A stretch of DNA of 64,000 nt from an uncultured Clostridia bacterium. Its GTDB lineage: Bacteria; Bacillota; Clostridia; Christensenellales; UBA1242. The translations under genes were made by a program, and so were the position numbers. The stretch spans positions 6,727-70,726 of the forward strand of contig CAKVMJ010000001.1 of the NCBI GenBank assembly GCA_934772445.1, written 5' to 3'. The notes beneath the pieces are model-generated. The model saw only the letters and a program-made list of their open reading frames with translations. It made no database searches and was not told where the DNA came from. Below, in pieces: positions 5,402 to 46,090 of this stretch. The first letter of the stretch is position 1, and every line of letters begins with the position of its first letter.

Positions 5402-5402
5402 A

Positions 5403-6840: not shown

Positions 6841-6851
6841 TATTTAAACCC

Positions 6852-7145: not shown

Positions 7146-7211
7146 AATTTTTCTCCTCTATAATTTATATAATTTTATATATAAAACTTATTTAATCTCT
7201 TAAATAGTGTT

Positions 7212-16761: not shown

Positions 16762-16789
16762 TTCCAAACCCTCCACCTAGGGTTTGGAA
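16762..16789 (-). terminator. terminator-like hairpin downstream of the giant gene
   Basis: TTCCAAACCCT (16762-16772) pairs with AGGGTTTGGAA (16779-16789): 11-bp perfect stem, 6-nt loop. On the minus strand it is followed by T-rich sequence, though the T-run is not immediately adjacent. Confidence 0.55.
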
Positions 16790-16848: not shown

Positions 16849-19800
16849 TTAAGTTGGAACATGATAATAGTAGGCACTTTGCCAACGAGATGCACTTAAT
16901 GCATCAGTTTTGATACTTCTATTAGAATTCATCAATGATGACTCATCATAATAGTATAACACACCATTTTCTACATGGTCAAATATAACTACATGTTGAC
17001 CATTATAATGTACTATATCACCTTTCTTTATATTTGAATTAACTTTTCCACCAACTATAAAACTACCATTATAATTACCATAACCACTTGACTTTGCAAA
17101 GGCTAAATATCCTGCACTACCATTTTGCTTACCTAGATAACCATATAGTAATCTAACAAATCCCCAGCAATCTGTATAGATTAAACCAGAATTATTTTTT
17201 ATCATATTTATAGGAGCTGATAAATTATATTTAGTTACACCATCACCGCCATTATTTGTGTTGGCGCGTTTATCGCATTGCTTTGTGTAACTATCACTAT
17301 AATAGTGGATTGCATAATCGTATGACCATTCTACACCTTCTTGTGCGATAAAGTAATTAATAGCATTTATAACCCCCGGTACTTCCCCAGCTGGAGTATT
17401 ATCACCTCCACCCGGAGATGGATCCGGATCGGTTGGGTTCGTTGGATCTGTAGGATCAGTTGGATCTGTGCCTGAACCACCGCCCGGATTATATCCCGGA
17501 TTTAAACTTGGATTAGTTCCGTTTGCTTGGTCCTTACCTGGAAGAAGTTCTCCACCAGAATAAGCAAGTGACCAACCGAAATCGCAACTAGCAACTTTTC
17601 CGATAACTTTATCATATAGAGAATTACCAGAAGCAGTATAAGCTCTAACATCATAACTCAATTCATCATAAGTCATTGTGCCTTCTTTTAAAGCTCTAGT
17701 AGTGATTAAGTTATATAAATTTGGATGCCAATTATGATTTGAAGCTTTTAATTGAGAAACTGTATCAAAATCAATTTCCAATGTGATAGTTTCACCATTA
17801 TTGATAGTTTTTCTATCAGAAGCTTTAACCAAATTTGGATTTGAGAATAAACTTTTCAAATTGTAATCAATTGTTACGCTTTGATTTGCGTTAATAGCTT
17901 GTTGCCTTGCATACTCACGCCTTTTATCATCATATTCTGAACCTAAATATTGTGTTGTTTCTTGTCCATAAGATTTACTACCACCTGAAATTGTCCAGTT
18001 TTGGGTTCTTCTAGGAGGACCGCAATATTCTGCATTGCCTTTTGGTTCTGCATTATATGTTGCAGTTATTTTTGAATGTTCATAAACATAACTAATAAAT
18101 TCATAGTTATAATATAAACCATTAGACAACTCAACATTTAATTCGCAAAGCACTACTGGAATTAATCTTACATAACCTTGAACTGTTAATGTTCCGATTT
18201 CAATGGTTTCTGTTTTTGTACTGAAACTATAATTATCTGTACCCCAGCAATTATCCGGATCATCTACATAGTCATCAACCCAAATTGTTACTGGTACTGA
18301 AATCTCTCTTCTTGATATAATATTACCATTTTCATCATAAGTATATTCATACTCAGTTTCATTTTTAATTTCTTGGTGTCGTCCAACCCACTTTTTCATA
18401 TATTCAGTTCTAGTTGAATATCCAGAAGTACTACTGATTTGATAAGTGATATTTTGTTTTACATGTTGAGTTCCAGCAATACCAACATCAATAGTTGAAT
18501 ACCTACTTGATTGTTTTAAACTACCACCAGATGATGGAAGATATGTAAATGTATATGTTGCAGTTACATCTGGACTATTGAAGTCTGTTTGACCTTTTGT
18601 TGAGATGATGACCTGACCTGTGGCATCAATCAATTCAACCGTTCTATCAAGATGGCTTATCTTATATGGATCAGTTCCGCTATAACGCATACTTGTATTT
18701 GAATAAGTATCGCAATTTGGATCTGTATAACCAAGAGTTAAGTTATTACCAAGAATTTTACCAATATAATTGAATGTGTTATCTGTATTGTGGAAGTCTT
18801 GACCTGCTACAACAACTCTTGTTTTATTTTGAGTGAAGCCCGGAGTATCAAAACCAAGCCTATCAAACACACCAGATGAAGATAAAGATTTTGGCAAGTT
18901 TGCTTTTCGTTTAGTTGTGCAATTCGCACCCCTGCTTACACCATTACAAACCCAATAATCTCCATTTAATGTTAGCTTTCTACCATAATTTGTACAAGTA
19001 GATTTTTCACAATAATAACTAGAGATTATTTCATTAATCTTATATTTACCTTCTTCATAGCCATCGTTTCTATCGGTATATAATGTTGAAGTACTTTCAG
19101 TACTTGAAGAGATTTGCATTGTAACATCTCTAACAACTATATTTTTACTCTCTGTTAAAGATGAAGTACCAGCTGAATATCCAGCCAAACCTCCAACATA
19201 CATAGAACCCATTACAAAGCTTGAAACTCTTTGATTTGATGTATTATTTAATGAAAATCCTTCAACTCTTAAGTTTGTTGAACTACCCTTATTTCCAGCA
19301 TCTGTATCTATATATCCGAATAGTCCACCAACATAAGCACCACCAGATACTGTTCCGCCATCATCAAAATAAATTTTGCAATCTCCAATAATAGCTGAAG
19401 AATTTGCTAATGGGTCTGAATGGTAACTACCACAGATACCACCAACATAATCTCCTTGAGCTACAATTGAAGCTCCATTGTTAGAAACAGAGCCCAATTT
19501 AACATTTTGGCTTCCTCTAGTTGTACAATGGATTAATTCACCAACTATACCACCAACATACGAACCAGAAGCTGTAACTGAAGCACTATTGCTTGCACGC
19601 GTAACCGATGGAGATTTACATTCATCAGGTTTGATATTATTTTGACTATCATAAGCATACTCAATATCGCCCTTACCAAGAATACCCCCAACATAGTTTA
19701 CACCAGAAATTGGAACTGTGTTTGATGTGTTTGTATTTGTATCATTATCTCCTGTGATATAACAATCACCGATAGCATAACCACAGATACCACCAACATA

Positions 19801-22800
19801 CGAACCAGAAGCAGTTAAGCTATCATAAGTGTTATCTCCATTAATTCTATCTAATCTAGCAAAGCTATAGATTGAACCACCTTTAGAGTAACCTACAACG
19901 CCACCAACATAGTTAGTTCCGCCAACTCTTATTCCTCTATAAGAACCAGAGTAGCAAACTCCATGTAGATATCCTACGAATCCGCCAGTGTAATCTCCAC
20001 TAGCTGTAACTAAGATATTTAATCCGTTTTCATCTTTATTTGTTTTTAGTACCGCTTCAGCAGTTTCCATAGTAACAGCTTCTCCAGCAACACCACCTGT
20101 TTTAGTTCCGCCATTAACAGCTATATTTTCAATATTTCCGTTAACTTCTGCGTAACCAACATATCCGAAGGCACCACCAACATTACTATTACCATTGATT
20201 GAAGCAACACCATTTTGGATATCAACTCCACCACCAGTATAGCCAGATGTTGCACCAGAAACATATTTAGCATCTTGGTTAGCTCCATCAACTAATGGAT
20301 AATGATAAGCATAACTATTATTTGTTTTGTTAAAATCGTTATTTCTATCGTTTTGACCAAAGATTTCTTCATTGCCTGTTGATGGTTTTTTAACTGTATC
20401 AAATCCACCAGCAACATAACCAGCAACACCACCAATATATGCATTACCAGAAATGCTATATGTGGAATCACTAAATAATACTTGAATTCTTTCAACATCA
20501 ATACTTTCACAAACATAACCAGCAACACCACCAACATACGAGCCTGTGGAACTATCGCCAACAACTGTTACATTTGAAACTACAATAGATGTGTGAAGAT
20601 TTGTATTATTATTGAATGATGATTTCTTCTTTTTAAGAATACTACCATCAATATAACCTACAACACCGCCAACATAACTTGAACCAGTTATCTTCTGGTT
20701 TTCATTACCTTTTAATGAGAATTGACCAAGGATATCTCCTTCTTCAACCTTACCAGCAAATCCACCAACATAGGATAAACCATTGATTATAACTGAATCT
20801 GTGGTAACTGCTGCACCATTATATATATCTGCATAACAAGAATATCCAATAAATCCACCAACACAATCACTATTTGAAGAGATTGCTGAATTTTTAATAT
20901 CAATTCCACCGCTACCATATAGTGCAACTATAAATTCTCTTGGTTTATTATCTTTAGTTAAGTCAACGCCATATTTTAATAATACAGCACCAAATCCGCC
21001 ACCAACGCTTCTACCATTAGCAGTAAGATTTAAGTTATTTATCTCAAATCTATTCTTTTGATCGGCATCATCTCTTCTTAACGCACCAGAACCGCCACCT
21101 GCAAATGCATAAGTATTATTTCCATCGCCTGTTCCTGATGGTTTAATTCCTTCATATAAATACCAAGTTAGAGTTTTGCCTTGAACTTTATAATATTGAG
21201 AGAAATATGCATTAACTTCATCTTCGCTCAATGCTTTACCTGTTGCGTTAACTGTTGCATTATTTAACACAGTACTTGCAACATCGCCATAACCTACAAC
21301 GCCACCGACTGCATAAACACCTTCAACATTAGCATTATTCAATACAATTCTGCCAATGAAATTATCGCTATAACCAACTGCACCACCAACCATTGCATTA
21401 CCTTTAACAGTGATGTTTGCATTATTAGTTACTAGGTCAACACCTGCAACGATATTACCTTCACCAACAAGTCCGCCAACCCTATTTTGATTTGCTGATA
21501 CTTTAATAGTACCTGCAACCCAAACTAGGTTATCTTTTGTACTAGAAAGAGTATTACTACCCATTCCACCAACTAATCCACCAACTTTAACAGATTCAGC
21601 ATCTATAAATTCTTCAAGCCAACTTAAATAACGAGAATCTGAAGATTGTAATTCTTTTTGTTGACCATTTTCTGTAATCATCTTGCTTGGAAGAACAGCA
21701 ATATATGTGGAATTAACCATAATATTACTAAATGCTTCTAAGCCTCTAATATTATTATCAGCATTACCAACAAGTCCGCCAACGGATTTACCATTAGATG
21801 TTACATTAACACCGCTATCAGATATTAATGCGCCAACTTTATTTAATCTTAAACCAGCATAACCAATTGCGCCACCAGTGTTTGCACCTTTAGTTTGACC
21901 TCTATCATCAATTCTTGTTGAATTAACGAGTGTTATATTTCCAACATCAATATTATTATCTCCGTTGAAAATGAAATCTCCGCCAGATGCATCTTTATAT
22001 ATATCAGTGCTACCAATTGCACCACCAACATTATCACCATTTGCATTTAATGTTATGTTATAAGCCAAGATTCTGCGTTTTGCTCTATAGTATGGTTTTC
22101 CATCAACATCAGTTTCTGGAATTAATCCAACCTTTTCTTCATCAAAGTTTTTACTTATAAAGCTGCCGTTTGCATTTTTCTCATACGATAAGATTGTTTG
22201 ATTTACATGAGCTGAAAGCCTCATATAATCAGCAATCTTTCCGCCTGAAACTTTATATAACATAAAGCCTTCGAATGCACCAACTACGCCACCTATATTA
22301 TCGCCCATTGAAGAACTTAATGTTAGGTTTCTAACAGTTATTGTTCCACGCTCGCTTCCGCAATATGAATAATAACTTCCGCCATAAATATATGAACCGC
22401 CTGTGTTTGAAGTGGTTTTTGTGTAGTGTCCTAAATCCAAGGTTGATTTACCGAACGCACCACCAACATAATCACCTTGAGCATTAATTGTAACGGCATC
22501 AGCCATATTAATTCCGCCTACGGTAATTGTTCCATAAATTCCAACTTTTTGGTTTGCAAATTGCTTATCTGTACTGAAATTATCAACGAAATTATTTGTT
22601 GTAATCAATCCAGCAACACCACCAACAAAGCCTTCATTTGCATCTGTTTGGTCTTCTGCAAGCCTACCGCCTGTTAATTGCAATGCCTTAACACTAATAA
22701 CACCTGTAATTCCACCACGAATATATCCAGCAATACCGCCAACATATTTACCAGTTGTGGAAATTACCACATTATTAACATTCAACACTGCTGATAGTTT

Positions 22801-25800
22801 GCAATCTCTATTTGCACTAGAAACATTATCATCTCCAGCTTCTTTTGATTTATTATTTCTCCAAATGCTATTATCTCCAATACTTCCACTCATACCGCCA
22901 ACATAATCCATTGTTGAAGCAACATTTGTGTCTTGAACGAAAATTGTACCATCTAAAGCACCGCTAAATCCAGCAAGTCCGCCAACAAACGAACCTTGTG
23001 CTGTTACAGTTGTTTTATTAACAAATGTATTTGTTTCGTTTGAACCAGAAATTGAAGCATTTGAAATTTCCCTATAAACCTGACCTTGATCTTGAGTTTT
23101 ACCAACAAGATAAAGATTTAATTCACCAGCAATACCAAATCCACCACCAACAAACGCACCATCTAATAAAGTATGATTTTCTTTATGTACGCTTGCATTA
23201 AATGAACTTGTAACTGCATTACTTGTGTTTTTATCAACATCTAATTGAACATTTGATGCCATACCAGTTAATTGTCCTGCGATACCACCTAGGAATACGC
23301 CATTTGTTGTTGCGTTTATATCCTTAGCAATAACATCATAAAGCATACTAACCGAACCTGCAACACCACCAACATAAGAATAATTTTTCTTATAATTTCT
23401 AACCGCACTTGAGAATTTAGATTTTAAGTTATCCTTAATCTCTTCAAGTTCTCTGATTATATCTAGAACTTCATCTCTATTTTCAATCGCATCTTTCAAT
23501 GTTTCATTGAATTTAGTTTTATAACCATCGGCTTGTTTTTTCAATGTTTCTAATTCGTTTAACTCATTCTTCAAATCGCTTGATTTCTCAATTGCAGAGA
23601 TTAACTTATCTCCTTGAGATTGCAATGTTTGAATTTGTTTTGTTAAACTATTTATTTCTTCTTGAGCATATTTGCAAACTATATCAATAGCACTCTTTTC
23701 TAATGCTTTATATCTACTTACAAATTGACTCTTAGAATAACGGCGAATTTCCACATTGCCCTCACTATCTGTAATTCTTTGAGGAGTGATTAATTCGTTA
23801 TAATCTTTCTTTAATTTAGAAAGTTCGCTTTCAAGTTTTGATTTATTTGAACTTGATAGAAGAGGTTTGAACCCTGCAATTTTTCCAGTTGAGCCAAAGT
23901 AGTTAGAACTTAAAGCCGAACTTGAAACGCTACCAGATGCATATCTTGAGTAAACACTCTCAGCATCGTTTGCAACATAAACATAATTGCCTGCTTTATT
24001 TTTGAAGGTATGCATTGAATTTTCAACTTTAGCAGATTTTTCAGCAAGCTTATCTATCTCGGCCGAAATATTATCATAAGCTGTTGAATCACCTTCTTGA
24101 AGTTTTTGTTGTAGTTCCTTCTTTTTATTGCTTATATATTTATTAATTGCATTAATTATCTTATTAACTTGATTAATTATATTACTATTGATTTCATCTA
24201 TAAAGTCATTAAATAATTCTGCATCATTAGCAATTTCTAATAAGCCAATATAATAATCTCTTTCTTCTTTATTCAAATCTTGTTTATCAAAGTATTGCTC
24301 TTTATTTTTCATTAGAGTGATTAACTCTTCCAAACTTTGTTCAACTTGAGGCTTTAATGTGTTTGACAACATTGAATAATCAATTAAATCAATATTACTA
24401 AATTCTTCAGCATTCCTATAAGGTTCTACCATCGCATTTAATGATTCACAATCATTAATTGTTTTTTCAATTTGGTCTAGCAATTTTTCAAATGCTTTTC
24501 TAAGTCTTGAATCTAAGCTATCACCAACACTCTCTATTTGAGATGTTACATCTGCTTTTGTGATATTTGATTGTTCGATGTCTGATGCCATACCAGCCAT
24601 ACCACCAACATATCTTCCTTTAGCAGATACATTTATATCTTCAGCATTAACATTATCTAGTAATTCGCCAAGACCTGCAATACCGCCAACATAATCTGCT
24701 TTACCAGATGTTGAAACTCTAATAGTTAGAGCATTACTTTCTGTGATTGATGCACTACTATAACCAGCAACACCACCTATAAAGCCCATACCTTGATCGT
24801 TTGCCATAGATGAAACAGATAATTCTTTAACATTGATAGTTTGAATATCGCTACCAGCATAACCTGCAACACCACCAACGAAGTTTCCGCCTTCAACTGA
24901 ATCATCTCTAGTTGTACCAGCAGTAACACTTACATTTTTCATATCATAAATCAATGCTGTTTGTGCGCTATATTCACTATAGATTAAGCCATAAGCATAA
25001 CCTGCAACACCGCCAACATAATTACCTAAGCCTTTAATTGTGATAGCACCATTGCCACTACTTGATGGAGCAACTCTAAATCTATAAATTGTTCCATAAA
25101 CTTTACCAACAACGCCACCAACATAATCGCTATTACCAGAAACTGAAACTGAGCCATTACCAGCAACAACATAAGGTTTTGTAATATCTAAGCTAGCATA
25201 TCCTGCGATACCACCAACATAATCTGCTCTATTCTTTTCATCTTGATAACCAACATTTGAATCAATTAAGCAAACAGATTCCAATGTTCCTTCTGCAGAA
25301 CCAACCACACCACCAATGTAATCTCCATTTCCTGTGATTGTGGAGTTTGCAACAAATGTATGAGAAATTAGATATGTTTCTTCTTGACCAATTGTACCAG
25401 ATTGAACATAACCAATCATACCACCAGTCATCTCGCCTGAGTTTGTGATTGTACAACCAATTACGCAAGCAGATTGAATACTTGAAGATGATGAACCAGC
25501 AATACCACCAACCAAGCTTGAACTTTCATCAATACCTGTGATATTAGATTTATAAATAGCAACACCGCTTGAGATTGAACCATTATTAACACCAACCATT
25601 CCGCCGATATTCATAATGCCAGAGATATTAACTCCGCTTTCCATTGCAGAACCAACCATAACAGCACCATAGCCTCCGCCAATTGTACCGCTATTAACAC
25701 CTGCAATAGCACCTGCATTACTACCATAGTTATTATTAAATGCACCAATTGTTGAATTTGTAACTTTTACATTTCCGATTGTTCCAAAGTTTTTAGAAGC

Positions 25801-28800
25801 AATAATACCAATATTATTTTTTCTTGATTGGATTGTACAACCACCAGCGAAAATCCAATTCAATGAACCTTCATTTTCACCAACCACAATTGCAACATCT
25901 TTATCATAATCTAATTGTTCATCAGTTAAACTTAAAGACTTGAATGTGATACCAGCGATTGTTCCGCTATTAACATCAAATAATGGTCCTTTAAGTTCGA
26001 AACCTGTTAATGTGATTCTAAATCCAATAAATTCTTCTGTTATATCTTTGAAATTGATAGGCTCTTCAGCAACTGTTCCTAAATTATAAACCTTTGCTTG
26101 AGTGCTATCATTTAAGATATAAACTGGGTAATCAATTCTATCTTGCAATCTTAAATCTTTATATCCATAAATATCTGAAGTTAATAAATATCTTGCAAAA
26201 TCTCTTTCACTCTTAATAATATATGAATTTGATTTTTGTTGGAATAGATTATATGTACTACCCTCTAAAACAGAATTTGGTTTTGATGGGAATATATTTT
26301 CAATATCGCCATCTTTTGCTTGTCCGTTTGGATAATTTATTGTACCCTCTTCTGCATTTACATAAATCTCATTTGAATCATTATCAACATTATAAACAAG
26401 TTTTGCTTCAATACCTGTTGGAATAACAACACCTTGTCTTGAATTATATAAATAATAGTTTGTATCTCTATAAGATTTATCCCAAATATTATTTCCTTCA
26501 TCATCAATATTAATGAAATATGAAATATTCTTATCTAGCAAGTCATCTGTTTTTGCATTATTGAATGTGTTAGTTCCGGTATCTGAAGTTCTATAAGTTT
26601 GGACCTCAGCATTTTTATCAATAGTTATTTCAATACCAACTAAGTCAACTTTATAATCAATAAATTCCATAGCGTGGAAACTTTGAGAGATTCCGCTATA
26701 ACTTCTAGTTCTATTGATATAAGCTAATCCCACTGCAACTAATGAATCTTTTCTTTCACCTGTTGGAATTTGGTCATCATTTGTTGCATCGGTAATAGTG
26801 ATATCATAATTCTTAACATCACCATTATAAGTTGTGTGATATTTTGCAACCCAATCAGTATTAGCAGTTGAATAACAATCTTTAATAATACCAGCATTTT
26901 CATAAACAAATCCGCTAACAACTAAATCTTGTTTTACTATATCTTTTTGAGTTTGAATATCTTTTTCTCTATATACATTACCAATAATCATACCAGTATA
27001 AGTTACAACCGCACCACTTCTATAAATATCTGAATTATTATTCTTTAAGAAGCTTGAAACGATTGTTGGATTATCATAGTTTCCAGAACCATTTATGTCA
27101 CTTGTAACTTCACCGAATGTTACACAGTTAAATACTCTACCATTGTTTGTTCCGATGAAGCTATATTCACTTGCATCTTCCATAACTTTAATAGCAAATC
27201 CAGAGATTATACCTGTGCTTTCTAAAGTATCAATCTTACAAGAAGATAAGATTGGATAATCCTTACCTCTATTTGCTGAAATTAGAGGTGTGTTTTCTTG
27301 AGAATTTGTTAAATCTTTATTTCTACCAACCATAACGCCTGCAAATTCTTGAGGAACAGTTACATCAGCATCATCTATTAGGATATAATAACCTTCTGGT
27401 GCTAGAGTTGGATTTCCTAAAACGATTTCTGGATTTAATTTAGTACCAGTTTTGAAATCAAATTTTCCTAATTCAACTGGATTTAACATTGTAGCCAAAC
27501 AATTTACTTGTGAGAAGTTTCCGTTTGTACCCATTTGGATAGAAACAAATTCATCTCCTTCAAGTTTGTTTCCACTAAGTTCGATGAAATCTGCATAGCC
27601 AATTGCTATAGTACCATTTTTAGAATTATCTAAATCTGTATATGAATCATAATCATAAGCTTTAGATAATATTTCTGTACTCATAGCCACATCTGCATAT
27701 TTAGCATAGAATTCTGCTACGAAATATACTTCGCTTGTGTTATCTGAATTACAAATTGAAGCAATTGTATTTAGGTTTGCATTATATGTTACCTCAACAT
27801 TAACATTATTTAAACCATCTTTATCATTTTCACAAACAAATCTTGCAATAGAATAACCTTTTCTAAGCTCAATAGTTGTTAAACTTGCAGAACCAATAAT
27901 ACCACCGATATTATTATAGAAATCACTTCTTGAATAGTAATAAATATCACCATACATAACAAAGTTTGTAATTTGAACAACTTTAGCAAAACCGATAAGT
28001 CCGCCAATATTCATTTCAACTAAGTTACTTTCAACTGCTTGAACATCACCTGCGTTGTAAACAAATGAATAAGTACCATTATCTGAATAACCTACAAGTC
28101 CGCCAAGGTTTATGATACCAACAGAATCAAGAATATCTCCATTTACGGCTTTAACCTTTGATGTTGAAACATTACCAAGGTTAAACATATTAGTTACCAC
28201 ATTTCCGCTTGCTTTATTGTAACCAATCAAGCCTCCGATATATGCGTTATCTTTCACACCCTCTAAGATGCTTACATCAATATCTGAATAGTTTCCATAT
28301 TCATTTTCTGTTTGTTTATTTCCAGAAATTGAACAATTATCTTGAACATAACCTACAAGTCCGCCAACATAATTATAGAAATAATGAGCATTAACTTTAA
28401 TCTTTGAAATATTTAATCTACCAGCTTTTGCATTTACAACATTGGTATATAACATACTTCCAGATATTCCACCAACATAGATTGAATATGTTGAAGCTTT
28501 TGAAACTTCCTCAACACCATCTCTTTGAAGGTTTATATCTATTCCATAATTATTTGAAACATTTGTGATAGTTGAATAACTTGTGGAAGCAACGATACCA
28601 CCAAAATACATATCAAAGTAAACGCCATATCTTCTCATATTATAAGTATAATTTGAGTTAATATCATAATCAGCATTAATATTAATATTTTTTAATTCAA
28701 CATTACTAATAGAGTTTGAATTAGATTTTGCAACAACACCTGCAAAATTCAAATCTATCTTATTATCAATAATCCTTCCATAATTAACTAAAGCATTAAA

Positions 28801-31800
28801 TACAAGCTTATTAGCTTTTGCTTCAACTATTATATTATATAAACTTGAACTTTGAGCAAGACCGATTAATCCACCAATTGTGGAAGCAGTACCTGTTCTC
28901 ACTTCAATAGCTTCAATGTTATTATCAAATATCAACTTAATATTGCCATTTTCTTTACCAACGATATTACTTGCTGTAACTTCACCAAAGATTACACCAA
29001 AGTTTTGAATATTATTAAAGCCTTCCTCAATTTCGTTATAAGCTAATTCAAATTTTAAATTTCCATTTGATTTAATTGTGAATGTACATTCCTCAATTGT
29101 AGATAAATTAACTCTTGTTGCAATTATACCGAAGTTGCCATTTTCAGAGCCATAAATCTTACCTACATTTCGGCTATTATCAATTTCTATTTCGAAATCA
29201 ATATCTTTTAATACTGCACCATTAAGTTCGTTTAACAATGCATAAACGCTATAATATTCATCATCAACAATTTGACCTGTTTTTAGAACTACTATAGGTT
29301 TTCTACCATCTTCATCAACTAAGCCATTTAATACGCCTCTAAATACAGTATTAAATCTTGCATAGTTTGAACGATTTGAGATTTGAGTTAAGTCGATAAT
29401 ATATTTACCATCATAACTTGCATCTGCATAAACATCTGTGCTAACAGTTTCCATAGTATAGAATCTAGCATTATCTGGTTTAGATAAAGCATCAATCAAT
29501 TCTTGACTATTTGTGATTGTTGCAAAGTTTGAATATCCTGCAAGTTTATATTTAGCTAAATATTCATCACTAGCTTTCATCCAAACATAATTTTCTCTTG
29601 CAGTAAGATTCTCAGGATTTACTAATGTTGCATTAATCTTATAATCAACTTCCCTTTGTCCGTTTCCATCAATTGCATAAGAGCCATCAGCATTATATTT
29701 ATAAATTGTATAAACATTTGTAAATAAGTTTACTGAACTCATCTTATCAATTGTTTCATTGGTTGAACCAGAAGGAAGAGTATCAACATTCTCATAGAAG
29801 CCTGTAATATTTTGAAGATATTGTTGAGTGCTGGTTGGTTTACCATTCTCAACCATTATGCTTGTGTATTTATAATCACCAAATACTTCGCCGATAGATT
29901 TATTATCTATCTTCTCAGCTTTAGTTACACCATTTGAAAATAACTCTGCATTAGCCAAATTATAAGTGGTTGTTCTTGATGTTGATGGCAATGTTTGATT
30001 TATAACACCATAAATCATACTTAAATTTTCATCATCAGCATTACCACTAGTGGTTAATGTGGCATAAGTTGTTGAAACAACTCCATTGAAGTATGAACCA
30101 AATTCATTACCAGTTAAATCACCAGTTTTATCTTGCTTAATGAAACCATATCTATCAATTACAGAATTTTCACTATAATTTATAAATGCACCTGTGGTTG
30201 TGTTTGTGATGATATTATTATCAACCATAACACTACCAATCAATGAACCAACATAAGTAAATGAACTTGAATTATTCTTATAACTTAAGTTTGCATTTTC
30301 AACTGCATCCATATTGTAATAAGTATATTCATTTTCTTTACCAGCCACTTGTTGTCTGCCAATTCTTGAATAAGATGTGATTTGTTGGTTACCAATTTCA
30401 GCCATTCTTAATGTGAATTTATAATCAACATTTGCATCTGTGAATAAATGAGAAACATTATTTTCAAGAGCAGTTCTAACCTTTCCGCCCCATTTATTTA
30501 AGCTTATAATATGTTCAAGATATAGAGCATAATTTAAGTTGAATGTTGAATGAGTTTCATCATCTTCATCAATAGCACCAACATAATAATAACCAACTGT
30601 ACCACCAACAATCTCATTTGCATAAACAGAAGATGTGGTATAAGAATATCCAATTAATGTAAAGTTTTCAGCATAACCGATTAATCCACCAGCAATTAAA
30701 GCATAATCACTTGTGATTGGAACTTTAACCATTGAATCATAAATTGTACCGCCATTATTATAACCAGCAATACCACCAATAGAAATAATCTTACCTCTAT
30801 AGTTTTCTGTATCAACAGTAAATAAACCACTTGTTTCAACAGATTCATTAACTTTTCCTAAGTTATTCCAATTATTTATTTCAGCATCAAATACAGTTTG
30901 AGTTTCGTTTTCATATAAAACTTGAGCTTTTTCAATAACACCCTTATTTTCTGCAACGATACCGCCACCATAGTTCTTTGCTTTAATTCCAATTTTCTTC
31001 TCATTATTTGGAGAATAAATTGCAACATTTGAAATCTTTGAATTACTACCTAAGTAACCAAATAATCCACCTGCATTTTCTGCGAATATATCAAATTCAC
31101 CTTTAACTGATACATCAGAGATTGTTGCTTTAGTTGCAGTGTAAACACCTTCATTAAAGCCATCATTCTTGATTGAATTTTCAATTCTCTCGCTTTCGTT
31201 TGAATCAATATTGCTATCTATATAAACAAGACCTGCAACTGAACCTGCATAAGAAAGTGAGCCAATCTTATTACTAATATAACTATTTAAAGAAGTATCA
31301 TTCTTATTTTCAATATCAACCAACGCATAAGATTTAATAACAGTGTGATCCATTTGAGTGGTTGCAAATTTCTTATATGTACCATAAGGGTTTGTATAAG
31401 CACTTGTATAGATTAAATCTTCATAAGTTGAACGAACTTTCAAATCTTTAACTTCAATATCATAGATATTAGTTCTATCTGCATTTAGTTCAACTGTATC
31501 ATCAATAATTAATCCTGCAATACCACCTACTAAGTTTTTACCTTTAACAACTGCGGATTCATTATTAGATGAAGTTAGGTTTACATTTATAATTGTACTA
31601 TTATAAATACTACCTGCTAATATACCTGCTTTATCTGGAGTGGTTTGTACACCTAGATATGCAACTAAATCAATATTTAAGTTTTTAATAACAGCACCAG
31701 CATAAGAATCTGTGATACCTAATTTATTTCTATTATCAACATTCAAACCAATTTGATTAAATAAACCAAAGTTATGAGAATTTATATTTGCTTCTGTTTC

Positions 31801-34800
31801 GTTTTTGAATGTTAAATTCAAGTTGTTAATACTTAGTCCGTTTCCTTCTAAGTTGCCTAGGAATACAACTTCTCTTAGAAGTACACCGCTCTTAGGTGTG
31901 TTCCAAATATTAACTTCATTTTCAATAGCAAAATCTAAATCGTTGATTTGTCTAATATAATTAATAGTTTTGAATGTGTCGGTATCTTGCTCTTCAGCAG
32001 TTTTACCAAAAATTCTTACTGTTCTATTATCATTACCTGTATAAGTTTTAGAATTTTCAATTATGAAATTAACAAATTGTTCTGCTGTGCTTACAAGCAA
32101 AGGATTTTGTCTTGTACCATACTCGTAATTATCTGCGTATTTATAATTATAAGTATATTGTGCACGCTCAATCAATGTTAATTCACTAAAGTCTAGTTCT
32201 GAATCAACGCCAGCATCTTTATCATAGATAACTTCGCCAGTTTCTTCGTTTATCATACCAGAAAGTATTCTATGAGAGAATGTTTCAACTAAGCTTGTAT
32301 TGCAAAGTTTTGGGCCAAGTTCAGTCATAGTCCATACTGAATTTTCTTCATCATCTAAGAAGATAAATCCAATAAAGAAGTTTGATTGTTCAAATTCTGG
32401 AGTGTTTCCAGTTTTCTTATTTTTCACGCCTGAAATGCCAACTGCTTTTTCATAAGGAAGTTCGCTTTCGCCTTCGCCAACTAGATAATAACAATCAATA
32501 AATTCGGCAGTGTTACCCCCTTCTTCATCTAGCCATCTATTAAATGCACCGTGAGCAAGAGAACCGCTATTACCTGCTTTTATTGCGGTGTTATAACTTG
32601 TTGTATAAGCATTCTTAATCGAACCTGTATTATCATAAACAAATCCGCTTGAATTTGAAGAATGAGTTTTTAGCGCAACTGCACTATAAGCATTTTCAAT
32701 AGAACCAGTATTTGAATAAACAAATCCGCTTACATTATTTTCACTTGAAACTGCATAGTCTTGAGTTGTTCTATATTTATCTGAATTTTGATTAAATTCA
32801 TAACCTTCAACAAATGAATTTAAAATCTTACCTGTGTTTTCAACAACGAATGCACCAGTTTCGTTATAATCAACACCTTTATAAGCATTTTCAATTCCAA
32901 CTGCTTTCGCAAATGTGGAAGAAATAATATTTGTATTTTGAACTGCTATTCCAGCAATTCTACCAGAACCTGCTAATTTAAATGGATTTACGGTTAATGT
33001 AGCTGATTCACCTTCACCATTTATATTTCTAACACCTTCTTCAGAAATTTTATTTTTCCAAATTGAAATCTCATTATTTATTTGAAGATTATTGTTTTCA
33101 TCAGTAGTTAAAATATTATTAATACCAACGAATGAATTTGTAATTGCACCATTATTAATAGCTGTGATACCACCAAATGATAATTTAGTGTTTACGCCAT
33201 CAATAATACCACTTGTTAGGATATGAATATTAACATCTTTCATATCACCTTTACCTGTTGAAATAACTTTGATATTTGTTACGCTACCATTATTAACACC
33301 AGCTAACACACCAAAATTTACTTCTTTATTAAATGCTAAGTCTAATTTATGGCTTGAAACTGTGTTGTTATAAGTACCAAGATTTTCAGCGATATCAGCA
33401 CTTGTTACAAAGTTATTTATATACTTATAAACAAGGTTTGTATCATCAGTTGTATATTTCTTAATATCTTCATCACTAGTTAATAACGAACCAATATCAA
33501 TTATCATATTTTTAACGATTGGTGTGCCTGTTTTACCTGTTGAAACATCTGTATATAATTCAACAATTTCACTAAACAAACCAACATTAACTGTTTCCAA
33601 ACCTCTTGATTCTCTTAAATCAAAGCTATCGATTTTTAAGATATATCCATTACCATCTAATGATGCCATATTACCAACTCTTGGAATATAATTTTCCAAA
33701 GTGATATCATTCATCATTATATAATGTTGACCTTCAAGCATTTTCTCAAAATCATCTTGAGAATAGATTGGATTTGGATGATCATAAGTTGTATTTTCTT
33801 TAACAACTAAGTCAAATTCATATTCAATAGAATATAGATTATATTTACAATCTAATTTCTTATCATAAATTCTTGATCTATAGCCATCGTTTTCATAAAC
33901 ATAATTATCATCATTCATTTCATCATCATTGATAACATAAGATCTAATTTCACCATCTGCATCGTAGAAGTAATCAAATCTAACAACAATTGTTCCAACA
34001 TTACCAACATTTATAGCTTTTAATGAATAATAATAGAAATTATATTTTGTACCATTGATAACTTTTGTTTTTGTTTCGGCTTTAAAGATATAGCCTCCAC
34101 AATTCATACCATCAACTAATTTAATTTCGCTTACTTCACCATCGTTATTTAGAACTTTATAATAGAAGTTTGCCTTAGAACCTGTAACGAATGTTTTTGT
34201 TCCATCTTCTTCAATATAAATTCCACTAATAGCAAATTGTGCTTTTTCTTTATTAGAGAAATCCATCATTGAATATCTATTTGTAATATCAATAAATTGA
34301 CCATATAAGTTTACAAAGTCAGCATCGTTTTGACTTGCATCAAATCTATATAATTTATATTCATTAATATTATATATTCTATTCTTATATAAAACTATAG
34401 AGCAAACTTGTTTTTCATAACCATTACCATTCTCGCCTAGAATTTCTTTAATTTCTTCCAAGTTATAGAATCTTTCAACCGGTACTGCAACTCTGAAGTA
34501 TTCATATTTAGTATAATTACTTTCTGCTTCACCTATTGTTAGATTTAAATGGTTTTGGCTATTAAATTTCCAGTAGATTTCCTTTTCTCCACCTTTGAAT
34601 AATCCACCATTTTCAATCATATATTTTAAGCTATAATATCTTTGCTCATTTGCATAGTAATATTGAATATAATCAAGATAAGATTCACCTAAAATATTTT
34701 CAGCACTAAATGTTACACCATTAATTTCAAATTTGAAATCTAATTCTGCAAAATCATTTAGAGTTAGAGGATCACCATTAGTTTGACCCGGAATAATATC

Positions 34801-37800
34801 CAAAACATTTAATAGATAATATCCATTATTTAATAAGAAATATTGTCCGCCACTAATCATTTCTTTTAGATTGATATAGTTTTTAGAAATTGGTTCATAT
34901 AAGTAAACATTATCATCAACTTCAGTTAGATTTAATAATGGATGATTATATTCATCAAATCTATCTAAAATTTCAGTTCTCTTATAGTAACCTGTGATTG
35001 TAGCGAATTTATCAACCGCTTTACTCTTTTCAATTTCATCATCTAAAGCAACATAATTACCATTAAAGATAATATATTTACCATTTTGGTTATCTTCTTT
35101 AAATCCATAAATTTGTCTGAAGATATTTGTATCATCAGATGAATCCTCAGATGGATTTATTAACATTTGTAAACCATTTGAAGTACCATTTAACACTTCT
35201 AATGTGTTTTTCTCTCCATTAGTGGTTGAACCTGCTAATGCAACCTCTTTAATTTCCAATGGAACAACTTGAACTGAAACAGATGCAGATGTTGGATTAA
35301 TTACGCCAACTTTAGAAACTGTTGCAGTGATTTCAATCATTGTTACATTTTCAAATTTATCAAGATTTAGAATATTATTTGCTTCAAAGAAACTATTTAG
35401 GCAAACAAGATAATAATTTTTACCTTCTTCAAATATACCATTAAATCCATTATCACCATCATCAATATAATTACCATTATTCTTTTTAAATGAATTTAAA
35501 CCATTTTCATCAACAATCAATAATGTTTGATTATAATTTTCATTTGCATATCTAACAGAAACTTCAACAATACTATCGAAATTCTTAGCACTCCAGAAGA
35601 TTTGTTTGAAATCACCTGGTTGAATTTCTGTTTTATTATAGAATGATGAGCTATTATTGATATAAACATCAATTTCTGGCAATGGTTTAACTGTTAAAGG
35701 TTTAATCAAAGTTGAACCAACTTGAGTACCTTTACTATTATAAGCTTTAATTACAAGCTTAATTTCTCTCTCTGGATTTTCTAACTTATAATTTTCATCT
35801 AAGCTAAATCTTAAGAAGAATATATCATCAAATACAATCTTTTTATTAATCTCATATTCACTTGATGTTTTTTCTAGTTTTACAACTCCATTTTCATCAA
35901 TTGTAGTTAAGATTGGATAATATTCAATTGTATGATATAAATCCTCAACTGGGTCTTTTTGTAATTTAGCTCGAACCTGAGTTATATTCAAATATTTATA
36001 TAAATCTTTAGAAGTTTCATCTAATTCAACAGTTAAATAACTGCAGTTACTAAATTTCTCTGAAACCTGTACTTTTAATAATCCAGTATAGCCCGGAGAT
36101 AATGTAGTACCTGGATTCTCCGCAAACTTATCATCGCTATTTTCATTTTGAGAATAGAATGTTGCAGTAATCTTTTCAGGGTCTGCTGCTGCAATAACGA
36201 AATCATAAGTATCGTTAGCTAGAGGATTACTTTCAGCATAGAATTTAACTAAATATTTTAATTCATCAAGATTAAAACTTGTTGCATTCTCTTTATATCT
36301 ATCTTTATTAAATCTAAATGTTACATTATAATGAATGATAAATTCAGAACTTCCCTCAATCTTAGTAACAAATGCTTGGTTTTGTTCAATAACAACCAAA
36401 GATTTGTTTTCAATATTTTTATATCTTTCATCAAATGGAGCATTCTCTAAACTAACTAGAGAATCAACTTTTGTATATGTTTTATTAGTTGTATCGTAAT
36501 ACAAGAAATCAATGAATATTTTTTCATTAAGAATAGCTAAAGAATTAACATCTTCTGTACCATCAGCATTATAAACTTTAATTCCAGTTACGCCATCTTC
36601 TTTATCTATAATTGCAACATTTGCAGTTCTAACTTTAATATTAACTTCATCACTACCGCTTGGTTGAATTTGAGCATCTTCATTTTCAATTACAACTTGC
36701 TTAGCTTTAGCATCAACACTAAATGCATATTCTTTAGCAAGAGCATCAATTGTTTTAATATTCTTTCCGTTTGCAAGTTCGGATTTAATATTAATTTCTG
36801 TATCATCAGTTTTAATATATTTTGCATCAAAACTTGTGATACCACTAATATTTTCAAGGCTCAATACTGGAGTTATTTTCAAATAAACTTTGCCAGTTTT
36901 AGTTCCTTTAAATATTAAAGAAGATAAATTATTAATACAATCTATATATACAATGGAACCAATATTTAAGTCTGTTAGGATTTCGCCAGAATGAATTATT
37001 TGAATTTGACCATTTGTATAGCCATCACCTAATGTTTCTGCATCTAATATTTCTATAATAGCACCAATATTTTGGTTTGCTTTATATATAATTTCACCAG
37101 AAACACCAGCATTAAAGATATTTTCAGATTCTAACAAATAATTAGCTTCTTCATCAACATAAATTTGTTCGAAATTCTCAACACCAACAGACACTGCTGA
37201 AACTTCTTGTTTTTCAATATTAGTATTATATAATTTAACATTGCTTAAACCATCAACAACAACCAAATGAACCACTGTTCTAATTTCTGGATTAAATGTG
37301 TGATAGAAAGTTAAATCAACAACACCTGTTCCTAAAGTTTCAATTAAATTGCCTTTAATTTTTAAAATTTTATTATCAACATCTGAAGATTTGATTGAAA
37401 TTTCACCATTTAATAGCAATTCAACATAATTTGTTTTAATAGAACTTACACTGCCACCAAGATTGATATTAATTAATCTTGAGTAGTTATAATTTGTGGC
37501 ATTACTAAATATGCCATCAACGCCAATCAAATATTTATTATTAACAACATTTGTTAAACCATTATCATTACTATTATAGAAGATAACAATGTTTTTCTCT
37601 GTATCTAAACTATTAGATAATTCTATATATGCCCTATTATTAAATCTTAGATTATATAATGAAGCATAAAGATTTTCTGGCAAATAATCATACAATGGTA
37701 TCAATTTACCATTAAGTAATTTCAATATAATAGGTTGACCATCGTTTGCCTTCTCATTAACAAACCAATCACCAGCATTAACTGTTCCATCAGTAATATT

Positions 37801-40800
37801 AAATCCTGAGAAATCAAAATCTGCAACTTTTGGAATTGTACTTGTAACTGTATTTACTAATTCACTATTTGATAATGTGAAGAATTTATTTCCATTGATT
37901 ACAGCATAGAAATTCTTGGTAACTGCAACAGCATTAATATTTGCGATTTCATCATCGGTTTTATTAACAGTATCTAAACCACTAACTAAGCCATATTCTG
38001 AAGAAATATTTGCTTTTACATAAGAATTTTCAACCGAATATCTATTATTTACAGTTTCAGTTTTGATTGAGCCATCTTGATTATAGCTTTGCAATTCAAC
38101 AACATCTTTCCAAACACCAACCAAACCTGAAACTTTAGGCATATTTGCGTTTGTATAAATGCTTCCATCGAAATAAGTTTTTGAAAGATTCAAAGTTGTT
38201 TCAGCATAACCAATTAAACCACCAATTGCGATTTCTTCATCGTTCCAGCCTTCAAAATTCTTTCCATAGATATTACCAAAGAAGTTTACACCATCTAAAT
38301 TAGATGTATTAAATCCCCTAACATAAGTTGCATTAATAACAACCATATTAATAGAACTATTAACTCCTGTGGCATAACCAATCAAACCACCAACATTTTG
38401 ATTAGCGACAATAGCTGAAGCATCAATACCATTTGTGTCTATTTCAGAAATTAAATAAACTTTTGAATCATTTAATTTTAAATATCCGCGAACCGCACCA
38501 ACTATACCACCAACATTTTTCTTTGCTCTTAGATTTGGATATGAAACCAAATTTTCAAATACCATAGAACCATCGGCATAACCAACAATTCCACCAACAT
38601 TTGCATAGTTAAATTCACCATCTTCATCAACTACAACAATATTTGCACTTGAAGCTAAATCATATAATGAATTTGAAACTGATGACCTATAATCAGCATA
38701 GCCAACAATTCCGCCTACATTTATAGATTTTGTAACAACACCACTTTGTTTATTTGCTTGAATAAATATAGCAACATCGCTATTTACAGATGTGGTTGTA
38801 ATATTTGAAGTCTGTTCTGGTCTGCCACTAATAATAGCATTAACTACTGCATTTCCATTATTAATATCTGTTGAAATAGCCTTACCAACCATTCCACCAA
38901 TATTAATTTGTTTATAGTTATAATTTTCGTTTCCCCCAACAAAGTTATCTGACCAATTATTTGCATCAATATTTATAACGCCTTCAACTCTACAGTTTGT
39001 AATACTTGTTGAAGTTAAGCCTGCAATTCCGCCAATATTTAATGATTTAAAATCAATTTTACTTGCTAAAACAGAATTATCATTTTCATCAGCAATTTGT
39101 GTTACAATTTTTGGCAATTTAATATTTATATTCATATTAACGCTTAAATTTTTAACAATTGCATTTGTACTATCAATAAATGGCAATACAGCGATATTTA
39201 AGTTTTTACTATAAGATTCACCATTTATCAAATTAGATAATTGGTTATTCTTTATAGTATCAGCCATTTCCTTTTCGTTAATATCCCAAGCAACATTTAA
39301 TGTGCTATATCTGCTATATGAAGTACCATTATATACATAATCTAATTTACCATTCAATGAGAATGTTGATAAATCATTACCTTCATTATCTTTTGCAAAC
39401 ACACCACTAATCTCATTCCAATCAAGTCCGTTATTTTCAGAAAGAGTTAGGTTGTTTTTCAAAACATAATAATAGTTAGTTTTTGAAGCCAAATCCAAAT
39501 ACATTTGTTTTAAATCGTTTATCTTTGAAATTTCAAATGCAGTTTCTTCAGATTTACCATCAGCCACTTTAACTCTTAAAACAATTTTAGTTGAAGCATC
39601 AACAGTGTTTCCAATTTGATACATACTATTTTCTGTTTGAATAGTTAAATAAGCAACACCAGCATTTTTAGGAACTATCTTAATTCTATTTGCATCAATG
39701 CTTCCATCTTCATTAACACCCTCAACTTCAAATACTTCGTTATCAAAGTTGCTAAGAATTATTCTATCTTTAAATACAACAACTGGTTCTGTTCTAAATT
39801 CAAGCTCGAATGAACTTGCAAAATTATCTCTCTTTTCGATATAAACGCCTGTTTCATCAACATTAGATAAGATAATATTTTCAATCTTATTTGCTCTTTC
39901 AATCTTTAAATTAACAAATTCAGCACCAACTAGTAATCCAAATTGTTCAACTGAAACTCTAAATTTAATATTTAAAGCGTTTGGATAAATCCAGTTATTT
40001 AATATTTCTTCAACATCTAAAGCAGTTAATTTATAATCTGTTAAATGGTTAATGCTTAGCCATTTATTAGCTATCATTTTTAATCCACTAACACCCTCTT
40101 CACTACCATCATAGCCGATTAATGAATAGAAATCCACTAAACGAACAGTTAATGAATTTTCATCAAATGTTGCAATATCCGAAAGCTTAACTCTTAAAAC
40201 ATTATTGTTCGAGAATTTAATTTCTCTTACAACAAGATTATTGAAGTAATCAACTCCATAATCGCTTTCAAATAAATACTTAAATTCAACACCAAGTTTT
40301 GATGAGGTTCTTAAACCACCCATTTCTGCAATTGATGGTTCAACACTATATTTTAATTGGTAGGTTGAATATTCATCAGCCTTATTTAAACCAACAGAAT
40401 TATAATCATAAATAACTGGTTCAACTTGGCTATTTATTGTAAATTTACTTAAAGGTTTGAAGCACCAAACTCTAACACTTTGTGAGTACTTTACAAGCTC
40501 ATACTTACCTTCTTCTTCATTCCATCTATAGCCAGAATAAGAGAAAGTTATAATAGCTGGTTCTGTAACGCTTGTAACAGCACCCGTGGTTACTATCTCA
40601 CCATTTTCCCAACTTAAATATTCAGAACCATGAATAGAAACTGAGCAATAATCAGTTATATCTAATCTTCTAGCCACTCTATTACCTAGAGCATCAACTG
40701 TTAGTATGTAATTATATAGTTTTAATCCAATTCTTGTTGGAGTTGATGAATTTTTATCATTAACTCTAACAACTAAATTTGAAATAGTTGAATATGAAAT

Positions 40801-43110: not shown

Positions 43111-43139
43111 AGTATATCTATTTTGTCGAAACTTGTCAA
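43111..43139 (-). promoter_or_regulatory. sigma-A-type promoter of the giant gene
   Basis: Minus strand reads TTGACA (43139..43134), a 17-nt spacer, then TATACT (43116..43111). The predicted leader is about 100 nt to the ATG at 43005. Confidence 0.6.
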
Positions 43140-44818: not shown

Positions 44819-45412
44819 TTATTTTGAAGATAAAGTTAAATATGCATTAGGGTCAATCTTTTTACCATTCTCATCTAAGGTTGCAAAATGAAGATATGAG
44901 CCAATACCACATTCCCTATAAGCAGATTCAGAAGCAACGCCAATAATATCACCTTTAGAAACTGAATCACCAATCTTCACTTTAACATTATCACCTAAAG
45001 AACCATAACTAGTTTTTAAACCATTAGCGTGTTGGATTACAACAACATTGCCTTCAAGATAGTTACTATAAACATCAGCAACCACACCATCTAAAACAGC
45101 ATAAACATTCATATTAGAAGATGCTAAGAAATCAATAGCCTTATGCGCTTCAAATTGTTTTAATGTTTCATTATAAACAAGTTCGCTTCCATTATAATCT
45201 TTATAAATTGAAGCATCAAGCATAGGCAAGCAGAATGTGATTTGACTATTAACTTGTTCTTGTTTTCCCCCTTGTGGTTTATTACTTGGTTTTAATGTTG
45301 CACTTAAAATTATAACTAATGTTAAAAGTGCCAATCCTGATAGAATTGCAATTAAGTAACCATATCTACTAAAAAATTCTTTCATCTTTTGTTTTGTTGA
45401 ATAATTTTGCAT
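44819..45412 (-). CDS. membrane-anchored M23/LytM-domain protein (SpoIIQ-like candidate)
   Basis: N-terminal TM helix (YGYLIAILSGLALLTLVIILSATL) and an M23 core (AHKAIDF ... VVVIQHANGLKTSYGSL ... SYLHFA). ATG 45412 follows GGGAGGAG by 7 nt. The track start at 45472 is an extension. Confidence 0.7.
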   Translation of the reverse strand: MQNYSTKQKMKEFFSRYGYLIAILSGLALLTLVIILSATLKPSNKPQGGKQEQVNSQITFCLPMLDASIYKDYNGSELVYNETLKQFEAHKAIDFLASSNMNVYAVLDGVVADVYSNYLEGNVVVIQHANGLKTSYGSLGDNVKVKIGDSVSKGDIIGVASESAYRECGIGSYLHFATLDENGKKIDPNAYLTLSSK

Positions 45413-45484
45413 TTTAAAACTCCTCCCTTTCAAGTTTTCAAAATCATTTCCAATAAAAATTTTTTTAAACATATTTTTTTAAAA

Positions 45485-45946
45485 TTAATAAGATGACATA
45501 ATGCAAGGATAACCTAACACAACCTTATTTTCAGATACAACAATTTGAATATTAAATTTCCCCTTATCTGTATTTAGTATTTTAGATAATTTAAAATCAT
45601 ATAAATAATATAAAGTTAAATTTTCAACTCTTTCCATAAATACAATTTTTTTATCACTTAAAAAATTTTTTATATTAAAACAACTCTTTTGAAAATAAAA
45701 ATTTTCACTTAACCTATCTTCATTTTTTATTAATTCAAGTTCATCAATATCTTTAATTTTTACCATATTAAAATTGCCACATTTTTGAGTGTTTAAATTA
45801 TCATAATCTTGATATGTAAAAACAATTATTTGAGAACAATTTTCTTTTTCAAATTCAATTAATCTATCAATGAAAACCGTTCCACCACTACCAGCAAATA
45901 TAACTATTAAAATTAAAAATAATATCAAAAAAATCTTTTTCATCAT
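45485..45946 (-). CDS. hypothetical secreted or membrane-anchored protein
   Basis: MMKKIFLILFLILIVIFAGSGG is a signal-like N-terminus. No recognisable domain. The start is uncertain and no good SD is visible. Confidence 0.4.
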   Translation of the reverse strand: MMKKIFLILFLILIVIFAGSGGTVFIDRLIEFEKENCSQIIVFTYQDYDNLNTQKCGNFNMVKIKDIDELELIKNEDRLSENFYFQKSCFNIKNFLSDKKIVFMERVENLTLYYLYDFKLSKILNTDKGKFNIQIVVSENKVVLGYPCIMSSY

Positions 45947-45997
45947 TAAAATATTGCCATTTTTTAATAAAAAATACATTCTATTATTAAATTGGAT

Positions 45998-46072
45998 TAT
46001 TGTCAGCATTATATTGAGAAATTGTCATAAATTAATAAATAATTGTCATATAATTATTAATAAATGACAATT
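45998..46072. promoter_or_regulatory. phased ATTGTCAT motif array (3 direct copies plus 1 inverted) in the divergent region upstream of yabP
   Basis: TGTCA cores at 46001, 46023 and 46044, and an inverted TGACA at 46065. Spacing is 22/21/21 bp. Includes CATAAATTA and CATATAAT, which resemble mother-cell sigma-factor -10 elements. Confidence 0.4.
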
Positions 46073-46090
46073 AATAGGAGTTTTAATAAT

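Follow-up and report, generated by a model that had tools for sequence, protein, structure and literature searches.

Giant surface proteins with β-solenoid binding domains have been documented in Firmicutes (PMC12863079). The closest described examples, Giant1-4 of Apilactobacillus kunkeei and the SRRP of L. reuteri (5NXK), are surface proteins of 3,000–8,000 amino acids (aa) in which a solenoid binding module sits on a long rod (PMC12863079). On the GLUG motif (Pfam PF07581) almost no literature was found beyond one report (PMC4021314), in which 3N6Z is described as a solenoid and its repeats as distant relatives of GLUG. The window considered here is the whole stretch of 64,000 nucleotides (nt; G+C content about 29%) from contig CAKVMJ010000001.1 of an uncultured Clostridia bacterium; on its minus strand lies one giant gene, for which an initial annotation, made from the sequence alone, had proposed about 75 GLUG-type repeats organized in six discrete arrays. 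The encoded polypeptide (in the following, the giant protein) is an ordinary kind of object, a GLUG-repeat surface protein, in an unusually large and mostly unannotated form.

The reading preferred here, to which we assign a probability of roughly 60%, is that the repeats are old GLUG-type β-helix blocks of one giant surface lipoprotein of a single uncultured, spore-forming member of the gut Clostridia. An N-terminal lipid would serve as the membrane anchor; at least five separate β-helix blocks and two degenerate ones, spaced by regions without a Pfam match and by a helical segment of ~390 aa, would together with the linkers form a long, mostly stiff fibre projecting from the cell, and the faces of the helices would be presented for binding, probably of glycans or other cells. 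At the far end, in this species, a small NlpC/P60-like cysteine-peptidase domain would be carried. By analogy with other giant proteins a role as surface fibre or adhesin seems plausible, and the C-terminal domain is a candidate peptidase as judged from its sequence motifs.

All six reported blocks fall into a single open reading frame (ORF; Table 1), and the repeats are real by any statistical measure applied. The strict core [YFN]-[VI]-G-G-[IVLM]-[AVI]-G-[YSK] occurs 20 times where 0.004 copies are expected, and the relaxed core x-[VI..]-G-G-[IVLMFA]-x-G 57 times where 0.84 are expected and the maximum was 5 (500 shuffles each). A hidden Markov model (HMM) derived from the units recovers 58–60 of them in the giant protein, and not a single score of 3 bits or more was obtained in the reversed protein or in 10 shuffles. 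With one false match and one double count dropped, 59 solid units containing G-G-[IVLM]-x-G (the GG core) are left, less than one being expected by chance; about eight further, degenerate units without the core are found in array 2 and in a mini-cluster of two units between arrays 4 and 5. The estimate of ~75 was thus about 15% too high.

The layout in discrete blocks rather than one tract was confirmed, and the coordinates given for the blocks proved good to a few tens of bases. Five of the six arrays indeed contain the GG core; array 2 does not (its units are of the type S-G-F-V-Y-x-N-x-G-x-I-x-N-A-Y), and the mini-cluster, a seventh group with units of the array 2 type, had been missed. The latter consists of EYSFIGTNNGRVFNCV and SGFVYENAGIIKDCY, both of which are kept in the orthologue of a sister species (locus L005). 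Counted by eye, arrays 1 to 6 had been credited with ~8, ~6, ~8, ~9, ~13, and ~32 copies, against 7, 0, 4 (plus one weak), 7, 11, and 30 GG-core units found here. The tail motif N-x-G-x-I-x-N-[SCA]-[YF], said to follow the core often, is in fact rare, although above chance (six copies in the whole protein versus 0.45), and is confined to array 2 (four copies) and the mini-cluster (two). Likewise, density and regularity do not simply rise towards the C-terminus: array 6 has the most copies, with a median spacing of 37 aa, but is broken by gaps or insertions of 85–149 aa, whereas in array 5 the units are packed most closely and evenly (spacing 27–46 aa, median 32.5 aa).

Membership of the repeats in the GLUG family was addressed by scanning each array as a separate protein (array 6 in thirds) with PF07581, the gathering cut-off of which is 20.5 bits. 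Array 1 (40.5 bits, E 2.4e-10, five stretches) and array 4 (33.8 bits, E 3.4e-8) pass, and array 3 scores exactly at the cut-off (20.5 bits); array 5 and array 2 gave no match, and of the thirds of array 6, one gave none and the others stayed below the cut-off (8.9 and 16.0 bits). The GLUG-type assignment therefore holds directly for arrays 1, 3, and 4, while arrays 2, 5, and 6, which account for about 70% of the copies originally claimed, fail as arrays. When single units were scanned at E ≤ 1, PF07581 was the only recurrent family and matched 11 of 18 units of arrays 1, 3, and 4 and 9 of 41 units of arrays 5 and 6 (best E 2.9e-4); units of the array 2 type were not matched (0 of 8), even at E ≤ 10.

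Three lines of comparison connect arrays 5 and 6 to the family nonetheless. An HMM trained on their units recovers 16 of the 18 units of arrays 1, 3, and 4, and the reciprocal model recovers 25 of 42 units of arrays 5 and 6 above the best shuffle score. Alignment of the two unit profiles with hhalign gave a probability of 90.9% (E 1.2e-6), over a 14-column core only. Finally, the database homologues of aa 5700–8738 number only eight (26–31% identity, E 1e-9 to 1e-21), yet PF07581 is present in all eight, one Fibrobacter protein is named “GLUG motif-containing protein”, and the units of these homologues read x-Y-V-G-G-L-x-G-Y, which resembles those of arrays 5 and 6. Judged by the cross-trained models, the profile alignment, and the presence of PF07581 in every homologue, arrays 5 and 6 are a divergent GLUG subtype that is under-called by the Pfam model. 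For array 2 the only link to GLUG is an indirect one, its colinearity with P0010, a distant protein from a Clostridia metagenome-assembled genome (MAG), with units of the form G-G-F-V-x-N-x-G-x-I-x-N-C-Y, which itself has no Pfam annotation.

Other families associated with large surface proteins were sought as well. No M26 zinc-metalloprotease domain of the IgA1-protease type was matched by Pfam or NCBIfam anywhere in the protein, nor was a similar protease domain found, so the giant protein is not an IgA1-protease-type enzyme. Pmp repeat and autotransporter β-barrel families gave no Pfam match at E ≤ 10 on the arrays and none elsewhere, and the translation, which ends in YYYHVPT, contains no LPXTG signal, hydrophobic tail, or Ser-rich tract.

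The fold of the arrays was approached by structure prediction, with shallow alignments that consisted of sub-sequences of the eight homologues and the arrays of the window itself. In the AlphaFold model of aa 5600–6185, array 5 has predicted local distance difference test (pLDDT) values of 70–90 and is all-β, with short strands every ~30 residues. The top 50 matches of this model in a Foldseek search of the Protein Data Bank (PDB) are all right-handed parallel β-helix proteins; 3N6Z is the first of them, and 5NXK is also among the matches. Most likely, each GG-core unit forms one turn of a right-handed parallel β-helix. The rise of such a helix is about 0.48 nm per turn, so the 59 turns would come to ~28 nm in total, ~14 nm of which would be contributed by array 6. 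That array 6 is also a β-helix is suggested by its homology to array 5, its sole support (BLASTP E values down to 1.8e-10; 25–36% identity over 100–300 aa). The solenoid structure proposed earlier is consistent with the repetitive all-β model of array 5 and its β-helix matches; the model of array 6 is uninformative.

Several results weigh against the reading as GLUG-type β-helix blocks of a surface fibre. As arrays, neither array 5 nor array 6 reaches the cut-off of PF07581, and array 2 does not reach it in single units either. In the model of array 5 the first ~210 residues are unreliable (mean pLDDT 59, predicted template modelling score (pTM) 0.65), and the best Foldseek E value is 0.044, none being ≤ 0.001, with TM-scores of 0.1–0.34; because these matches are weak, they amount to consistency with a β-helix, not to proof of it. 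The model of array 6 (mean pLDDT 44, pTM 0.48) is unusable and its Foldseek matches (E ≥ 3.9) are meaningless. Sequence and profile searches of the PDB with array 1, array 5, the C-terminus, region profile A3 (the array 5 region combined with segments of homologues and of array 6), and the two unit profiles returned nothing significant. Lastly, the NlpC/P60 match at the far end lies below the Pfam cut-off, and the sister species lacks the domain.

The same structural matches could be taken to mean that the β-helix blocks are themselves enzymes, namely polysaccharide lyases, glycosidases, or depolymerases, all with the pectate-lyase fold, which would make the protein a multi-catalytic, glycan-degrading fibre. 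Most of the Foldseek matches of array 5 are carbohydrate-active β-helix enzymes or phage tailspike depolymerases, and the host lives in the gut. However, this likeness is one of fold only (7–14% identity, E ≥ 0.04), and not one catalytic family (pectate lyase, Beta_helix, NosD, GH28, PL) was matched in Pfam or NCBIfam, even at E ≤ 1 to 10. To our knowledge, no catalytic role has been assigned to any GLUG region, which also counts against enzymatic helices; they are considered unlikely.

Between and beyond the arrays the protein is largely devoid of recognizable domains. None of the spacers is matched by Pfam at E ≤ 1, and NCBIfam returned noise only, on the segment between arrays 5 and 6. This segment has a high content of Glu, Lys, Leu, and Asn, shows weak matches only (to helical-bundle, syntaxin, and SMC/Rad50-like families), and is the fastest-evolving part of the region compared with the sister species. 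The initial annotation had assumed globular spacers in general; the composition and weak matches of this one point instead to a long helical or coiled-coil element. Downstream of array 6, an exhaustive search among 1.84 billion representatives found one homologous cluster for aa 8001–8516 (P0009, 56% identity), and the C-terminal 738–758 aa had no homologue in a word-indexed search or a peptide-pattern genome scan; in L005 the C-terminal region is 57% identical. The final ~200 residues are preceded by the linker PTDPTDPTNPTDPDPSP; in them, aa 8631–8733 (nt 16867–17175) match PF00877 (20.8 bits, cut-off 23; E 3.9e-4), and the motifs DCWGF and QHVVIF are present. No PDB sequence match was found for this domain. 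Linker and NlpC/P60-like tip are both missing from the L005 orthologue (compared at L005 9400–10000), from which it follows that the tip is not essential to the core role of the fibre.

It is possible to see in this tip the purpose of the whole structure, that is, a long-reach weapon or cell-wall tool, where the fibre would hold the NlpC/P60-like peptidase out at tens of nanometres so that it could cleave the peptidoglycan of neighbouring bacteria, and where the tip would be exchangeable as in polymorphic toxins. The E value and the two motifs (DCWGF and HVVIF) of the domain, the Pro/Thr-rich linker in front of it, its presence here and not in the sister species, and an M23 peptidase gene nearby can all be cited in favour, as can giant genes of other phyla that have been linked to attack on cell walls (bioRxiv 10.1101/2023.11.21.568195). 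The domain match is sub-threshold, though, and without counterpart in the PDB, the 738-aa C-terminal query found no representative covering the tip, neither an immunity gene nor a toxin-cassette structure came to light, the peptidase might just as well remodel the wall of its own cell, and the M23 gene stands beside yabP and yabQ and may be unrelated. This alternative is about as improbable as enzymatic helices; the bases of the two are a resemblance in fold class and a domain match below threshold, nothing more. More doubtful still is the specific notion of a lipid-anchored β-helix/coiled-coil fibre with an exchangeable enzymatic tip that attacks or remodels the walls of neighbours at a distance, and we would give equally little credit to the idea that such a fibre is a new type, the monoderm counterpart of contact-dependent toxin fibres.

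Returning to the GLUG-type blocks of a surface lipoprotein, the arrays appear to be ancient and held by selection, not a recently expanding tract. Paralogous units are only 20–26% identical (8–13% outside the core), and unit likeness within arrays is barely above that between arrays. Compared with the L005 orthologue, identity is 66.7% in array 5 (2 gapped positions), 45.6% in the helical segment, and 63.2% in array 6 (16 gapped positions); nevertheless, all 39 of 39 cores of arrays 5 and 6 are in the aligned place, and 41 of 42 units are closer to their L005 orthologue than to any paralogue. The ratio of nonsynonymous to synonymous substitution rates (dN/dS) versus L005 is about 0.3–0.36 (~0.36 in both arrays 5 and 6), a sign that this fast-evolving surface protein is under purifying selection; between strains, the value at the C-terminus is 0.24. 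Arrays 2 and 3 align colinearly, as one block, with P0010 (26% identity); some of the multi-block layout, at the least, is therefore older than this lineage.

The idea of a stepwise internal expansion as a recent process, with a tract still growing C-terminally, is hard to reconcile with these data and is very improbable. The similarity between arrays 5 and 6, the highest of any pair of arrays, would fit remote multi-unit duplications, but Tandem Repeats Finder detected no unit-length tandem repeat at the DNA level, direct DNA repeats are confined to the ~36-nt core at 64–80% identity, and the paralogues are as diverged as stated; the cores are fixed in L005 although the arrays are only 63–67% identical (PlsX: 92%), and the length of the gene is equal in three assemblies, including strains 1.7% apart at its C-terminus. 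Self-BLAST of the whole protein was empty, and windowed BLAST returned only the similarity between arrays 5 and 6 and similarities within arrays.

The other homologous GLUG proteins have 27–74 cores each, in one continuous array; the number of units found here is therefore unexceptional, and what is unusual is their division into blocks. Two of these homologues, the lipoproteins P0001 and P0002 (3,000–3,300 aa), have Flg_new repeats followed by an unbroken array of 72–74 GG cores, which means that very long GLUG arrays are not unique to the giant gene. As to how the blocks begin, a conserved block start is supported by the colinearity with P0010 for arrays 2 and 3 only. A “head” shared by every array was considered and dropped: a MAFFT alignment of five upstream regions was unconvincing, an HMM of the Fibrobacter head scored no better than shuffles, and an HMM of the head of arrays 2 and 3 and P0010 found only its own training sequences.

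The giant gene is real, chromosomal, and reproducibly assembled, as follows from its housekeeping neighbours and from the occurrence of the same PlsX and giant gene on further contigs. Its length is 8,738 codons when counted from the first TTG and 8,724 aa according to gene callers elsewhere, which report it at that length on two other independent gut-metagenome contigs; across the three assemblies the length is identical, even between strains with differences in 17 of 483 C-terminal codons (1.7% divergence at the C-terminus). The true start is likely the ATG at 43005 (MKKRLL...). Read from there, the protein begins with MKKR, a hydrophobic stretch, and L-F-A-C at aa 39–42 (identified by eye), and the residue after the lipobox Cys 42 is Gly (MKKRLLVIVMTFICSLGFLFA-CG); this lipobox agrees with the PROSITE PS51257-type pattern. 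The homologues P0001–P0003 likewise begin with lipoprotein signals. The promoter-like site in Table 1 is a consensus match only, as the number of such sites in the region is not above shuffle expectation; terminator-like sites number 3 versus 0.3 expected from shuffles, two of them being the same palindromic hairpin, one per strand.

An artefact, whether a Gly-rich pattern arisen by chance, non-coding sequence, or a chimeric assembly, has a negligible probability: this is metagenome-type sequence and repeats can mislead assemblers, but the shuffle and reversal controls are clean, the 26-kb frame is uninterrupted, the same gene stands on independent contigs, its orthologue is under purifying selection, and the repeats are too diverged in DNA to cause mis-assembly.

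Table 1. Features of the giant gene and its surroundings; positions are those of the window.
Feature	Position (nt)	Strand	Protein residues (aa)	Description
Giant ORF	16849–43065	minus		26.2 kb, intact; 8,738 codons counted from first TTG
Promoter-like site	43111–43139	minus		TTGACA-17-TATACT, 11 of 12 consensus matches; ~100 nt upstream of ATG 43005
Putative signal peptide and lipobox	42940–43005	minus	21–42	MKKRLLVIVMTFICSLGFLFA-C; pattern match by eye
Array 1	38146–39039	minus	1343–1640	7 GG-core units
Array 2	32540–33320	minus	~3249–3509	~6 degenerate units without GG core
Array 3	30616–31533	minus	3845–4150	4 sparse GG-core units; spacings 152, 98, 29 aa
Array 4	27826–28881	minus	4729–5080	7 GG-core units
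Mini-cluster	26860–27186	minus	5294–5402	Two units of array 2 type, between arrays 4 and 5
Array 5	24526–25611	minus	5819–6180	11 regular units, [DN]-Y-V-G-G-[VI]-[AV]-G-Y
Helical/coiled-coil-like segment	23401–24525	minus	6181–6555	~375–390 aa, between arrays 5 and 6
Array 6	19111–23376	minus	6564–7985	30 GG-core units, ~5 sub-blocks
C-terminal region	17506–19110	minus	7986–8520	Cys-rich stretch near aa 8010–8050
Linker, then NlpC/P60-like domain	16852–17505	minus		218 aa; linker rich in Pro, Thr, Asp
Intrinsic-terminator-like hairpin	16762–16789	minus		11-bp stem, 60 nt past stop codon
M23 peptidase gene and 174-aa ORF	44819–46743			ORF without Pfam match; adjoin sporulation genes yabP, yabQ

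One flank of the giant gene is made up of chromosomal housekeeping genes (nfeD, SPFH, plsX, rnc, smc, ftsY, ffh); on the opposite flank are genes for a PP-loop ATPase and the M23 peptidase, yabP, yabQ, pepF, and tmk. The position of the M23 gene and the 174-aa ORF next to yabP and yabQ marks the bacterium as a cell-walled spore-former, and the sporulation genes nearby suggest a single-membraned Firmicute. The closest representative genomes come from uncultured gut Clostridia and are MAGs with the label Christensenella-like or Christensenellales; the sister species L005, a MAG from the Hadza gut, has a PlsX that is 92% identical and lacks nfeD and SPFH, which in the window lie between the giant gene and plsX. 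Among related plsX loci only three (L005, L006, and L010) have genes with at least five cores. In L010 (CALVLZ010000012, PlsX 65% identical), one frame with 10 GG cores was seen; no listed ORF of at least 250 aa explains these cores, and the frame probably leaves the end of the locus. Two further genes of the window possibly encode other surface proteins, namely an 818-aa ORF without Pfam match (51063–53519, minus strand) and a gene for a 488-aa protein with leucine-rich repeats (54559–56025, minus strand).

About three quarters of the giant protein have no family match, which illustrates how large a share of a very big gene from a common but uncultured gut lineage standard annotation can miss. 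The Pfam record stored for the 8,724-aa product (loci L002 and L003) is empty and the protein itself did not turn up in a search of 5.8 billion sequences, which shows that standard pipelines leave the gene unannotated. The divergent subtype x-Y-V-G-G-[VI]-[AV]-G-Y is an example that should be useful for improving the Pfam model, and the comparison with L005 illustrates that every unit of a long solenoid array can persist from one species to another even where sequence identity has fallen to ~63%. Should the fibre bind glycans of the host or of microbes, it would count as a candidate colonization factor for the group. The current understanding of GLUG repeats and of giant surface proteins is left unchanged.

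Among the closest known proteins are P0010, P0011, and P0012 from Clostridia MAGs, which are colinear with the region of arrays 2 and 3 at 24–26% identity and share with it the block starts (P-x-P-I..., SLDGN..I), units of the type GGFV..N.G.I.N.Y, and the absence of precomputed Pfam domains. They are much shorter (1,300–1,600 aa, P0010 being partial) and uncharacterised, so no functional information can be drawn from them. Among known structures, the best, though weak, match of the array 5 model is 3N6Z (BACOVA_03286 of Bacteroides, a “putative immunoglobulin A1 protease”). The β-helical region of streptococcal IgA1 protease (6XJA, 6XJB, 7JGJ) shows a likewise weak likeness; chains of this protease were the only biologically sensible PDB matches of the unit profile of arrays 1, 3, and 4 (sequence E ~0.3).

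With P0005 of Fibrobacter sp. UWR2 and the lipoproteins P0001–P0003, the giant protein shares units of the type x-Y-V-G-G-[LIV]-x-G-Y with a period of ~30–35 aa, N-terminal signal or lipoprotein sequences, and a number of units in the tens. Those GLUG proteins, however, have one continuous array in 1,700–3,300 aa, whereas here five to seven blocks are spread over 8,700 aa; unlike them, the giant protein has ~5,000 aa without Pfam match, the ~390-aa helical segment, and the NlpC/P60-like tip, and it lacks the Flg_new repeats (PF09479) carried by P0001–P0003 and P0006. In Giant1-4 and SRRP, one N-terminal solenoid is followed by α-helical or serine-rich rods and the proteins have C-terminal attachment domains; in the giant protein, in contrast, several solenoid blocks would be set along the length of a protein that has no serine-rich repeats and would be held at the cell by a lipid anchor.

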